The position numbers and the translations under genes are program-made. Source: Alphaproteobacteria bacterium (GTDB taxonomy: Bacteria; Pseudomonadota; Alphaproteobacteria; UBA7985; JAUIBT01). From it: a stretch of DNA of 64,000 nucleotides. Shown here one piece after another: positions 52,728-56,591 of this stretch. Where the stretch lies: NCBI GenBank assembly GCA_030432195.1, contig JAUIHE010000001.1:4634-68633 (forward strand), in the 5' to 3' direction. Position 1 is the stretch's first letter. Each line of letters starts with the position of its first letter. The notes beneath the pieces were generated by a model that was not told the DNA's origin, did not search any database, and saw only the letters and a list, made by a program, of their open reading frames with translations.

Positions 52728-55700
52728 ATGACCGACCAAACCCCCACAGAATCAGGCACCACCGACGTGAGCGCTGCCGAGGCAAGCGGCGCAGGCAACA
52801 GCAACGTTATGCTGTGGGCGCCAAGTGAGGAGCGTATTGCCGCGACACGCCTTTGGCGCTTCATGCAAAAGGTCAATGAGGAATACGGCACAGACCTGAA
52901 GGACTACGATAGCGCCTACCAGTGGTCCGTCGCCCGTACCGAAGATTTTTGGGAACAAGTTTGGGAGCAGTTCGACGTTTTGGGCGACATGGGCTATGCG
53001 CCTTACCTAATAAACGGCGATGACGTAAAGAACGCGCGCTTCTTCCCAACCTCTAAGCTGAATTTTGCGGAAAATCTGCTGCGCGACCGCGACCCGGCGA
53101 GCGTGGCGATCGTCTCCTGGACTGAGGAAGGCCGCCATTCAAGCCTGACCTATCAGGACTTGTGCGAGCAGGTCTCGCGCATGCAACAAGCGTTGAAAGA
53201 CTTGGGCGTCGAACGCGGGGATCGCGTTGCGGCCTATATTCCCAACATTCCACAGGCCATAATCGCCATGTTGGCGACCTCTAGCCTGGGCGCTGTCTTC
53301 TCCTCCGCGTCGCCCGATTTTGGCGTGCGGGGCGTGTTGGACCGATTTGAACAGATCGAGCCCAAAGTGCTGATTACCGTCGATGGGTATCGCTATGCCG
53401 GCAAAGCCATCGGCATCTTGCCCAAGGTCGAGGAAATCGTTCCCAACCTGCCCAGCCTGCAAGGCGTTTTGGTACAACCCTTCTTGGAGCCCGCGCCGGA
53501 ATTGTCGGGCATCAGCAAGGCCAAGCGCCTGGATCAGCTTCTGGACAACTACGCGCCCAAGGCCCTGGAATTTGTGCGCCAGGACTTTGATGAACCGCTC
53601 TACATCATGTTCTCGTCCGGCACGACCGGTGCGCCTAAGTGTATCATCCACCGCCAAGGCGGCGTTTTGCTGAAGCACCTGGCCGAGATGGGCCTCAACT
53701 GCGATATCGGCGAGGGCGACCGGGTCTTCTATTTCACCACCTGCGGCTGGATGATGTGGAACTGGCTGGTCAGCAATTTGGCGCTGAAAGCCACGATCGT
53801 GCTCTATGATGGCTCGCCCTTCCATCCATCGGCGGAAATTCTGTGGGACATGGCCGAAGCCGAGCGCCTGACCTTCTTCGGCACCTCGGCCAAGTATTTG
53901 GACGCCTTGCGCAAACAAGAATTCAAACCCAAAGCTGGACGCCTGTTGAGCGACCTGCGCACCTTGGCCTCGACCGGCTCGCCCTTGGTTCACGAGAGCT
54001 TCGACTACGTTTACCAAAACGTCAAAGAAGATCTCTGCCTATCATCGGTCTCTGGTGGCACGGACATTGTGAGTTGCTTCATGGGCGGCTCCCCCATTTC
54101 GCCGGTCTATCGCGGCGAGATCCAAAAGCGCAGTATGGGCATGGCTACCAATGTTTTTGACGACGACGGCAACCCCGTGCTCGGCGAAAAAGGCGAGCTT
54201 GTGTGTACCAAGCCATTCCCATCGGTGCCCCTTGGCTTCCTAGACGACCCCGACGGCAAGCGCTTCCACGACGCCTACTTTGATCGCTATGAAGGCATTT
54301 GGACCCACGGCGACTATGTATCCTTGAACCAGCACGGCGGCATGCTGGTCTATGGCCGCTCTGATGCCACGCTCAATCCTGGCGGCGTGCGGATCGGCAC
54401 GGCCGAGCTCTATCGCCAAGTCGAGACCTTCGACGAAGTGGTCGAAGCCCTGGTTATCGGCCAAGAATGGCAGGATGATACCCGGGTGGTGCTGTTCGTG
54501 CGTTTGGCCGAGGGTGTGGCGCTGAGCGATGAGCTGCGGGCTGAGATCCGCAAGCGTGTGCGCGCCGAGTGCAGCCCGCGTCACGTACCTGCCATCATCG
54601 TGGCCGTAGACGACATTCCCCGCACCAAGTCCGGCAAGATCACCGAATTGGCGGTGCGCGACGTAGTGCATGGCCGAGCGGTTAAGAACAAGGAGGCCTT
54701 GGCCAACCCTGAGGCCTTGGATTTGTTCGCCAATATCCCGGATTTGCAGCAGGATAAGGAAACCCCGATTACCGCCGCGCCTGTGGTGGAGGAAGCTGCC
54801 GCCGCGCCTGTAGATCAAGCGCCGCTAGAGGCTTTCCCTGGCGAGGCTTTCCCTGGCGAGGCAGAAATAGACGCTCAAGATCAACCCGCGCAGGACGACC
54901 TAGCAGACGAGCTAGGCGCGCCCGATCTCAGCGCATTGGGCCAGCCGGTGGAAGCCAGCCGCCAGGACGGAGCCAGCGCCCAGGACGGAGCCAGCGCCCA
55001 GGACGGAGCCAGCGCCCAGGACGAAGCCAGCGCCCAGGACGGAGCCAGCGCCCAGGGCGAAGCCAGCGAACAAGACGATGACGACATCAACGAGGCTGAT
55101 ACCCACGTTGACCGCCCGGCAAATCCGCTCGTTGCCAGCACCGGCCAGGCGGCCGCTGAAGCCGAAGAAGCAGCTACGGCAAAGGCGTCCGACGACAGCC
55201 AGGCCGAGGGCGAGACCCAAGCTGAGCAACCAGCCAAGACCGGCACGGAGCCCGAACACGAGTTTGAAATTCTGGCAGAGACCACAAAGCCCGAAACACC
55301 CGTGCACAACTTCGACTTCAAAGTCACCCAAGCCCCGCCGAGCAGCGTTGGCGACACAGCGCCCGTGCCCAAGGACAGCCAAGAGACCATGGACCCCGCT
55401 GAGCGCGAAGCCATGTTGTTCGAAGCTCTGCCTATGTTCATGGAGCTGGCACAGGCTAAAGCCAGTTTCTGGGATTTTGTGTGGGACAGCGTGGACCACA
55501 ACGAAATGACCAGCCGGGCGGCACTGCGCGGTTTCCCGACGACGCCGCTAACCACGCTGTTTGACGCCCAGGGTGCCAAGCCCCCGTTTGGCGGGCTGAC
55601 CACCACACCCACCAAGGACTTGAAGCAGATCTTGGCGTCGGTGTCGGGCGCGCGTATCGCTGTGGGCCGCTTTGGCGATTGGGCCAATGCCGCGCCTGCG

Positions 55701-56591
55701 CTCTATGCCGCCGGCGTGACCGATAAGCACGTGCTGCTCAACGCCTACTCCTTTGATGGTGGGACGCATGGCGCCATGATGCAGGCCGCCGCCCTCAGCC
55801 TGGGTACAACACCTATTGCGGTTGGCGATGTGGACGTGCCGCGCCTGCTGAAGACCGTCACAGAATTTGACGTGGATGTGTTTGTTGGGCCCGCGGACGC
55901 GCTGGTTGCCATGCTGGAAACCGCACAGGCCCAGGGCATTACCGCTCTGCCGCTGCGAATCGCCGTCGTCGATCAGGCCAACAGCCAGATCCCCGAGGCG
56001 CTGAAACTGGCTTTCCCGCGCATTACCATCACCGGCACGATGATGGACGAGTTCTTCGGCATGATCGCCTACCAGCCCGCTGGCGAAACGCCCTTTGTTT
56101 GCTCCGAGCGCTTGATTATCGAAATCTGCGACCCGGCGACCGGCGAGCAAGTCAACGCCGGGGAAATTGGCGAGCTGGTCGTGACTCGCTTGGACAAGCA
56201 CACGCCGCTGTTCCGCATCGCCACCGGGGTTTTGACCCGCGAGCTGCAAGACACCAGCCCATCCCAGCGCAGCAATACCAAGATCCAAGGCTGGATGGGC
56301 GCCAAAGACGAAGTCTTGTTCTTTGAGGACGGCTCAGCTCTGCACGGCGCGCAGGTTTTGGCGCTGCTGGAGGCTCTGCCGGACGCTGAGGCGGGCTTGA
56401 TCCAGATAGACGATGTGCAGGGCGTGACGCTCAATTTGGTGGCCAAGCCCGACGCGGATGAAGACAAGCTGGTTCACGACGGCAACCGCGAGCTGCACAT
56501 CTTCACCGGTCTAGAGGGGCAGACCATCGTTCGCCCGCAAGGATCGATCAGCCAATACGGCCCCTTGATCGTCGATCGCCGGGGGGCCTAG
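52728..56591 (+). CDS. acetoacetyl-CoA synthetase (N-terminal roughly 690 aa) fused through a repeat-rich acidic linker to a C-terminal PaaK-like (phenylacetate-CoA-ligase family) adenylating domain with a degenerate P-loop
   Basis: The N-terminal part matches AacS: MLWAPSEERIAATRLWRFMQKV..., the AMP-binding FSSGTTGAPK motif, and ...IPRTKSGKITELAVRDVV. The frame then continues through EAFPGEAFPGE and six (ASAQDG) repeats, encoded by six perfect 18-bp DNA repeats. It then enters a roughly 440-aa domain with the PaaK pattern: GGLTTTPTKD (compare SGTTGKP) ...NAYSFDGGTHG...LGTTPIAVGD...PLFRIATGVL...GWMGAKDEVLFFEDG. Confidence 0.7.
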   Translation: MTDQTPTESGTTDVSAAEASGAGNSNVMLWAPSEERIAATRLWRFMQKVNEEYGTDLKDYDSAYQWSVARTEDFWEQVWEQFDVLGDMGYAPYLINGDDVKNARFFPTSKLNFAENLLRDRDPASVAIVSWTEEGRHSSLTYQDLCEQVSRMQQALKDLGVERGDRVAAYIPNIPQAIIAMLATSSLGAVFSSASPDFGVRGVLDRFEQIEPKVLITVDGYRYAGKAIGILPKVEEIVPNLPSLQGVLVQPFLEPAPELSGISKAKRLDQLLDNYAPKALEFVRQDFDEPLYIMFSSGTTGAPKCIIHRQGGVLLKHLAEMGLNCDIGEGDRVFYFTTCGWMMWNWLVSNLALKATIVLYDGSPFHPSAEILWDMAEAERLTFFGTSAKYLDALRKQEFKPKAGRLLSDLRTLASTGSPLVHESFDYVYQNVKEDLCLSSVSGGTDIVSCFMGGSPISPVYRGEIQKRSMGMATNVFDDDGNPVLGEKGELVCTKPFPSVPLGFLDDPDGKRFHDAYFDRYEGIWTHGDYVSLNQHGGMLVYGRSDATLNPGGVRIGTAELYRQVETFDEVVEALVIGQEWQDDTRVVLFVRLAEGVALSDELRAEIRKRVRAECSPRHVPAIIVAVDDIPRTKSGKITELAVRDVVHGRAVKNKEALANPEALDLFANIPDLQQDKETPITAAPVVEEAAAAPVDQAPLEAFPGEAFPGEAEIDAQDQPAQDDLADELGAPDLSALGQPVEASRQDGASAQDGASAQDGASAQDEASAQDGASAQGEASEQDDDDINEADTHVDRPANPLVASTGQAAAEAEEAATAKASDDSQAEGETQAEQPAKTGTEPEHEFEILAETTKPETPVHNFDFKVTQAPPSSVGDTAPVPKDSQETMDPAEREAMLFEALPMFMELAQAKASFWDFVWDSVDHNEMTSRAALRGFPTTPLTTLFDAQGAKPPFGGLTTTPTKDLKQILASVSGARIAVGRFGDWANAAPALYAAGVTDKHVLLNAYSFDGGTHGAMMQAAALSLGTTPIAVGDVDVPRLLKTVTEFDVDVFVGPADALVAMLETAQAQGITALPLRIAVVDQANSQIPEALKLAFPRITITGTMMDEFFGMIAYQPAGETPFVCSERLIIEICDPATGEQVNAGEIGELVVTRLDKHTPLFRIATGVLTRELQDTSPSQRSNTKIQGWMGAKDEVLFFEDGSALHGAQVLALLEALPDAEAGLIQIDDVQGVTLNLVAKPDADEDKLVHDGNRELHIFTGLEGQTIVRPQGSISQYGPLIVDRRGA

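Follow-up and report, generated by a model that had tools for sequence, protein, structure and literature searches.

Enzymes of the ANL adenylate-forming superfamily are usually treated as self-sufficient catalysts, and a gene in an alphaproteobacterial contig raises the question of why one such enzyme would carry, in the same chain, a second domain of the same superfamily that appears to have lost its catalytic motifs. The stretch of contig JAUIHE010000001.1 that we analyzed is 64,000 nucleotides long (hereafter the window, to which positions refer unless another locus is named). Its positions 52728..56591 on the plus strand form one ATG-to-stop frame of 1287 codons plus the stop, which joins an acetoacetyl-CoA synthetase (AACS), an acidic linker, and a domain with the fold of phenylacetate-CoA ligase (PaaK). 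The reading that we favor, at somewhat better than even chance, is that one active synthetase and a selected, non-catalytic pseudo-ligase that serves it as an accessory module are held together in one polypeptide.

A synthetase and a PaaK-fold domain in one reading frame

An earlier note on this DNA had described a single 1287-aa open reading frame (ORF) beginning with a complete acetoacetyl-CoA synthetase, and both parts of that description were upheld. A GGAGG stands at 52719-52723, 4 nt 5' of the initiating ATG, a context shared by the closest orthologue. Residues 26-674 (52803..54749, plus strand) were recognized as AACS by TIGR01217, NF002937 and Pfam. The TIGR01217 equivalog model matched end to end, with residues 28-674 aligned to positions 5-651 of its 652, and scored 882.1 bits against a cut-off of 520.9, while NF002937 gave 939.9 bits against a cut-off of 639; Pfam detected both AMP-binding and AMP-binding_C. 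The ANL motifs were intact in the translation, with FSSGTTGAPK at 53610-53639, WTHGDY (A7), GRSDATLNPGG (A8) and PRTKSGKI (A10). By these matches the N-terminal part is an ordinary, complete AACS and is predicted to be active.

Stand-alone AACS enzymes (EC 6.2.1.16; about 650 aa; found in Alphaproteobacteria such as Sinorhizobium and Hoeflea) match window residues 26-674 from end to end, and the last ~135 residues of the window AACS part are 72-79% identical to many of them. The AACS proteins among the best 120 matches listed, however, are 262-701 aa long and have no extra domain, whereas the window protein has some 610 residues more, made up of the linker and the PaaK-fold domain.

The second domain comprises residues ~880-1287 (55365..56588, plus strand). 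The earlier note had called it PaaK-like and about 440 aa long; the family held, but the domain is nearer 400-410 aa. Hidden Markov model (HMM) and structure searches assigned it to the PaaK branch within the ANL superfamily and not to an unrelated family, at scores far under the family cut-offs. NF041878 gave 65-71 bits (E 5e-18) against a cut-off of 700, TIGR02155 gave 43.5 bits against 646.3, and Pfam AMP-binding reached only E 0.024. The closest solved structures by sequence (phmmer) were BT_0428 (4r1l, E 4e-15), PaaK1 (2y27, E 8e-11) and 2-hydroxyisobutyryl-CoA ligase.

We modeled residues 858-1287 with AlphaFold2 from an input alignment of 93 sequences; the model had a mean predicted local distance difference test score (pLDDT) of 88.4 and a predicted template modeling (TM) score of 0.83. 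About 30 residues ahead of the first helix were of low confidence (block pLDDT 49, 47 and 73), with values below 50 only at 858-860 and 870-876; residues 858-879, the sole stretch of the linker that was modeled, were predicted to be disordered, and the first well-modeled helix began at about residue 890. Foldseek searches against the PDB matched the model over the whole length of the domain, the top hits being BT_0428, PaaK1/PaaK2 and HCL (E 5e-30 to 1e-24, TM 0.66-0.73); for 4r1l/4rvn, 2y27 and 2y4o the values were E 5e-30 to 6e-26 and TM 0.66-0.68. The predicted structure thus confirmed a two-subdomain PaaK-type ANL fold.

The domain is therefore like PaaK (EC 6.2.1.30; TIGR02155; 2y27/2y4n/2y4o) and BT_0428 in fold over its full length, with recognizable sequence homology. 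It differs from PaaK in its profile scores, 43-71 bits against cut-offs of 646-700, and in its apparent lack of the P-loop, the A7 Asp, the A8 Arg and the A10 Lys. We saw no paa gene context around the fusion gene in the window. To judge by its sequence, which fails every PaaK feature that we tested at that level, the domain should not be called a phenylacetate-CoA ligase.

Nearest relatives and the catalytic positions

We sought relatives of the C-terminal domain among 5.8 billion clustered proteins and, by an exhaustive scan with HMMER, among 1.84 billion representatives. In both searches the best matches were ~405-420 aa long, stood alone, and bore the annotation 'phenylacetate-CoA ligase family' or 'AMP-binding'; they were 29-36% identical to the fusion domain over 76-100% coverage, with E values down to 5e-44 (single sequence) and 4e-50 (profile). 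At E <= 1e-10 the relatives made up 194 representative clusters (50% identity). No NCBIfam model covered this stand-alone family, to which we refer by its PPFGG motif, above threshold. Its members carry SPGPI[YF][DE]PE in place of SSGTTGKPT, and the S, P, G and P were conserved in 100% of 235 members. Out of the 82 full-length representatives nearest the query, none had a canonical P-loop; SPGP was present in 57 and other degenerate loops in the rest. One member of the SPGP family, P0199 (527 aa), has an extra N-terminal domain of ~110 residues with a receiver- or flavodoxin-like look and is another fusion in this family.

Because the nearest stand-alone relatives all lack a canonical P-loop, its degeneracy is not special to the fusion protein. 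The earlier note had taken the degenerate loop to suggest a dead or neofunctionalized domain; the range of readings was right, but the loss is clade-wide and not peculiar to this protein. The site also had to be moved. The segment that had been read as the P-loop, GGLTTTPTKD (residues 955-964; 55590..55619, plus strand), consists of the PPFGG motif, kept in the fusion domain at residues 952-956, and its tail; it is shared with the stand-alone family, and phmmer aligned it with the upstream 'YPFG...' segment of PaaK1 (2y27) and BT_0428 (4r1l). The true P-loop (A3) equivalent is S971-V979 (55638..55664, plus strand), which reads SVSGARIAV against the canonical SSGTTGKPT. Here phmmer aligned the P-loop IHASSGTTGKPTVVG of 2y27/4r1l with ILASVSGARIAVG of the fusion domain, and a MAFFT alignment with the 235 relatives and the canonical PaaK-type protein P0112 gave the same placement. 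The S971-V979 loop is 2-3 residues shorter, lacks the Thr-Thr, and has Ala at the Lys position, and to that extent the claim of degeneracy stands.

In ANL enzymes the A7 Asp holds the ribose, the A8 Arg forms the hinge, and the A10 Lys is catalytic. In the fusion domain, on the plus strand throughout, the A7 Asp (TGD) position is occupied by V1168 (56229..56231), the A8 Arg (GRxD) position by A1192 (56301..56303), and the A10 Lys (GK) position by P1279 (56562..56564). The corresponding residues are Asp in 100% of the 235 stand-alone relatives, Arg in 99% and Lys in 82%, and PaaK has all three. The substitutions were common to all four orthologues, and those at A7 and A8 were seen also in an independent phmmer alignment to 4r1l. 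Among the nearest stand-alone relatives 86 columns are conserved to at least 90%; the fusion domain kept 45 of them, and the 41 that it had lost include the motifs G.G.T..Q and GTPS, which canonical PaaK and the family have in common.

The stand-alone PPFGG family thus contains the nearest sequence relatives of the fusion domain, and like it has PPFGG and no canonical P-loop, whereas the fusion domain is also without SPGPI and without the TGD Asp, GR Arg and GK Lys. What these alignments show in the fusion alone is that the A7 Asp, A8 Arg and A10 Lys, retained by the stand-alone family, have gone as well. The domain is a divergent offshoot of an uncharacterized P-loop-less PaaK-like family, and we infer that it cannot carry out canonical ATP-dependent adenylation.

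An alternative is that the C-terminal domain is still an enzyme with non-canonical or new chemistry, either taking up an acyl-adenylate or acyl-CoA made by the AACS domain and passing its acyl group to another acceptor or binding a nucleotide through its remodeled loop; the fusion would then be a two-step channeled pathway. Amide- and ester-forming ligases of the PaaK branch (AjiA1, NatL2 and ClxA) were among the fold matches, E1108 may correspond to the A5 Glu, and the stand-alone family, with its invariant SPGPI and its retained Asp, Arg and Lys, looks altered in function rather than deprived of it. We nevertheless consider this alternative unlikely, since four independent positions that contact the nucleotide or adenylate (A3, A7, A8 and A10) have been replaced by residues unfit for the same job and 41 of the 86 family-conserved positions, the two shared motifs included, are gone.

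A conserved fusion with a variable linker

A scan of GTDB, with one genome per species, returned three relatives of the fusion (L001-L003), in two Alphaproteobacteria metagenome-assembled genomes (MAGs) and one 'uncultured Rhodospirillaceae' MAG, with 87-93% identity in the domain. Each is a single ORF with a listed length of 1240-1358 codons; the conserved MTD start lies inside the listed frame. The linkers in the four genomes (window plus three) were 216, 223, 182 and 164 aa long, every one in frame, and the remaining two frames of the linker DNA contained 1-12 stops. The earlier note had raised the prospect that a stop or frameshift in the linker divides two separate genes; three independent MAGs keep an uninterrupted frame across linkers of different length.

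We calculated dN/dS by the Nei-Gojobori method at dS of ~0.7-1.5. The ratio was 0.04-0.15 for the AACS part, 0.15-0.48 for the linker, and 0.04-0.09 for the PaaK-like part. The degenerate PaaK-like domain is at least as constrained as the synthetase and is under purifying selection. Strong purifying selection across the whole domain, together with a loop, SVSGA(R/S)IAVG, that is nearly invariant in the four genomes, would also fit the altered chemistry considered above.

The same figures bear on whether the fusion is real. An artefact of frameshift, missed stop or mis-assembly, or else a decaying and drifting remnant, might be suspected, since the linker is repetitive and GC-rich, a context prone to assembly and slippage errors, and since the fusion protein of the window has no record in an exact-match protein collection. 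We consider this extremely improbable: four independent assemblies show a continuous in-frame ORF with differing linker lengths, dN/dS of 0.04-0.09 at dS of ~1 excludes drift, and the domain is predicted with high confidence to fold.

The linker of the window protein (54750..55364, plus strand; residues 675-879) is rich in Ala, Glu, Asp, Gln and Pro, with Asp plus Glu at 24% and Ala at 21%, and it carries an in-frame 18-bp tandem array, much as had been claimed. The six perfect (ASAQDG)6 copies reported at the same time were not borne out: Tandem Repeats Finder gave 6.4 imperfect copies at 54953-55068 (plus strand; 93% matches), and the exact 18-mer GCCAGCGCCCAGGACGGA was found only 3 times, at 54972, 54990 and 55026, the remaining copies differing by 1-4 substitutions. 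In order, the peptide units are ASRQDG, ASAQDG, ASAQDG, ASAQDE, ASAQDG, ASAQGE and ASEQDD. A second repeat of 15 bp (54828-54862, plus strand; 2.3 copies by the same program) encodes EAFPG twice.

The ASAQDG-like array is specific to the window, and the linkers of L001 and L002 carry other in-frame, lineage-specific repeats of their own, EPEPEA-like 18-mers in L001 (9404-9513) and (D/E)ASPEE-like 15/30-mers in L002 (9671-9779). The linker is a recurrent site of repeat expansion, and since the L001 and L002 repeats are different it evolves by in-frame slippage, growing and shrinking in length. Short islands are conserved among the orthologues within it: LGAPDLSxLGQP, INEADTH, PANPLV, HxFDFxVT and APVPKDSQETM.

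The last of these islands ends at Met888, from which the C-terminal domain might also, or only, be made separately by internal initiation, a reading that does not exclude the others. The boundary Met is conserved in all four orthologues (QETM) and in the distant fusion protein P0134 described below (AEMM), and a purine-rich stretch (CAAGAGACC or CAGGAGACC) precedes it. That stretch, however, is fixed by the conserved codons Q-E-T, and in the window it amounts to a weak AAGAG just 4 nt from the ATG, as against GGAGG at the true start. In four genomes, moreover, 164-223 variable linker codons have remained free of stops, which would be needless if only the downstream product mattered, and there is no promoter-like site within the ORF. 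We regard separate production from Met888 as very unlikely. A promoter and terminator scan of the fusion gene gave nothing beyond shuffled expectation; a terminator-like hairpin at 54693-54718 was set aside as a product of repeated EAL codons.

The exhaustive scan also yielded P0134, a protein of 1024 aa from an ENA metagenome contig (L007) whose GC content is 50% (61% in the window). Its identity to the window protein is 57% over the first 660 residues, the AACS part, and 32% over the last ~330, the PaaK-like part, with a linker of just ~40 residues between them. The two proteins share the junction TAPxPK...M(M)D.EER.AMLFEALP, an S.SG-type loop replacing the P-loop, and LV(I/V)TRLDKxxPLFR, and both are without the TGD Asp. 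We built a neighbor-joining tree of the fused domains with 82 family representatives and canonical outgroups, in which the five fused domains formed one clade in 100 of 100 bootstraps. The fusion is old, since two lineages with AACS parts 57% identical share it, and the simplest reading is a single ancient joining event, followed by rapid remodeling and then stabilization of the second domain.

As recorded, the P0134 ORF ends at the A8 hinge. The DNA shows a TAA stop there, 2 nt before the contig end (L007 6293-6297), rather than a frame cut by the end of the contig. If that stop is real, P0134 would lack the lid subdomain of the PaaK-like fold, although so close to a contig end the stop is not secure. 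A domain without its whole lid would count further against altered chemistry.

The fusion is rare in the collections searched, where it was seen in the window, the three species representatives and this one metagenome contig. Two scans of metagenome contigs, queried with the alignment of fusion domains in one case and with the window domain in the other, found no relatives, and the fusion clade seems to be rare in the scanned metagenome collection. A query that joined the AACS tail to the PaaK-like domain returned 8000 candidates, all of them AACS-only and none above the 264 bits of the AACS tail, a weak negative given that P0134 was not returned; when the fusion domains served as a profile, the matches were without exception stand-alone proteins of ~410 aa, likewise a weak negative, as this word-indexed search missed P0134.

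A proposed partnership with a synthetase and its implications

We read the gene neighborhoods of seven stand-alone members from Alpha- and Betaproteobacteria (genera including Oricola, Xanthobacter, Massilia and Rhodocyclus). Six of the seven loci held an operon for a ~655-aa FadD11-like acyl-CoA synthetase, LivG, LivH, LivM, LivK (Peripla_BP_6), LivF and, last, the PaaK-like protein; at the seventh the contig breaks off just upstream of the gene for the binding protein. The one operon synthetase whose sequence we read, that of locus L005, has a normal P-loop. A canonical ANL synthetase is thus the operon neighbor in the stand-alone family and part of the same chain in the fusion. At L010 (622-5337), in an Alphaproteobacteria MAG, P0340, a stand-alone PaaK-like gene of the P-loop-less kind, has a Liv-type binding-protein gene on one side and ccmA-ccmB-ccmC on the other. 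The window also has ccmA-ccmB (48420-49771), ~3 kb upstream of the fusion gene. The proximity of ccm genes at L010 and in the window may be remnant synteny of the stand-alone operon and the fusion locus, or coincidence.

At every complete locus examined, the P-loop-less relatives share an operon with genes for a canonical ANL synthetase and a Liv-type ABC importer, and for that reason we propose a non-catalytic partner role for the second domain of the fusion. The pairing seen in the relatives makes the fusion look like its hard-wired version, by Rosetta-stone logic a canonical ANL synthetase permanently joined to a degenerate PaaK-like partner. The N-terminal domain would activate acetoacetate by the usual two-step ANL reaction, as in other AACS. 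The C-terminal domain would do no adenylation and would be kept as a non-catalytic module, for oligomerization, docking or ligand sensing, working on the attached synthetase or together with it. PaaK enzymes dimerize through their N-terminal microdomain, and if that holds for this domain, a pseudo-ligase serving as a dimerization or docking surface would be the simplest concrete version of the proposal.

Several observations weigh against the accessory-module reading. The synthetase of the stand-alone operon is FadD11-like and just remotely related to AACS, and we found no Liv-type transporter genes in the window or near L001-L003 and L007; the fusion therefore differs from the stand-alone operon both in its partner and in not standing beside a transporter. 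The stand-alone relatives keep Asp, Arg and Lys and, by their sequence, may be real enzymes, in which case the operon link need not mean an accessory subunit. The A10 assignment (P1279) comes from a single MAFFT alignment. In the phmmer alignment to 4r1l, E1108 aligns with the A5 Glu, which may survive; MAFFT aligns the A5 region otherwise and leaves the Glu position without an acidic residue. Finally, long-branch attraction could have inflated the support for a single clade of fused domains.

A broader proposal extends the accessory-module reading to the relatives. The P-loop-less PPFGG branch would then consist not of mis-annotated phenylacetate ligases but of partner subunits (regulatory, scaffolding or substrate-handing) of canonical ANL acyl-CoA synthetases, which would couple the uptake of carboxylates to their activation with CoA. 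The AACS fusion would be the Rosetta-stone case, with the partner now fully non-catalytic and tethered. We put this forward tentatively and think it unlikely.

The neighborhood of the fusion gene was largely conserved. L001 and L003 keep the order ccmA-ccmB-PdxK-like-CitE-like-short-chain dehydrogenase/reductase (SDR; divergent)-fusion-histidine phosphatase-SppA-PBP1A, and L002 keeps the upstream half of it. The SDR oxidoreductase (51683..52507, minus strand) is divergent from the fusion gene and adjoins it in all four genomes; it was the best conserved neighbor, with 93-95% amino acid identity in L001-L003, above that of the fusion itself. It may be a functional partner of the fusion, perhaps supplying a 3-oxoacid substrate. 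The SDR scored below every specific NCBIfam cut-off, including that for 3-hydroxybutyrate dehydrogenase (104 against 307 bits), and no specific pathway could be assigned from the neighboring CitE-like lyase, SDR and histidine phosphatase.

Other features of the window included further repeats. A 13-bp tandem repeat (2.5 copies, 56622-56652) is intergenic, just downstream of the fusion gene, and a 15-bp repeat at 56762-56794, within the histidine-phosphatase-like gene on the minus strand, encodes GNMMPGNMMPG. An 855-aa protein (42039-44606, plus strand) has the low-complexity repeat tract SETKPSETKPSQDKSSQDKPS, and the PBP1A-like protein (59117-62140, plus strand) ends in an Asn/Gln/Gly/Tyr-rich C-terminal tail, NQGYVNQGYSNQGFGNQG. 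Repeat-bearing disordered segments seem to be common in the source genome. A 601-aa ORF (62193-63998, minus strand) has several internal copies of a module of ~60-70 residues that contains Cys, with the pattern ...CxxE...LDKLCDDLA...ATLERF(I/V)S(Q/R)H..C..QV.LA..Q...

The earlier note knew of no described tandem fusion of these two enzyme families, and we likewise found neither an AACS-PaaK-like fusion nor an ANL pseudo-enzyme partner described in the open-access literature, nor any pertinent open-access paper on the P-loop-less PaaK-like proteins or the acyl-CoA synthetase-LivGHMKF-PaaK-like operon. The arrangement can be compared with DIP2, a eukaryotic didomain, made of tandem units resembling fatty acyl-AMP ligase (FAAL), that is conserved and functionally required (PMC9342972). 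DIP2 likewise has two ANL-superfamily domains in tandem in one chain. It differs in that one FAAL-like domain is duplicated, in opisthokonts and with a DMAP1-binding domain, whereas the fusion is bacterial and joins two different ANL subfamilies, AACS and PaaK-like, through a disordered linker of ~200 aa, its second domain being without catalytic motifs.

What sets this protein apart is an ANL-fold domain that has lost four of the five core motifs for nucleotide and adenylate (the remaining one, A5, being ambiguous), yet is conserved as tightly as the enzyme to which it is tethered and has been kept across a deep split, at which the AACS parts are 57% and the pseudo-domains 32% identical. This combination is the signature of a pseudo-enzyme whose function is under selection. 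The fusion offers a simple system, in which acetoacetate activation is easily assayed with and without the extra domain. It also draws attention to a large, widespread and uncharacterized P-loop-less PaaK-like family that is now annotated 'phenylacetate-CoA ligase', and if the fusion mirrors a physical partnership, it would provide a testable hypothesis for that whole family.

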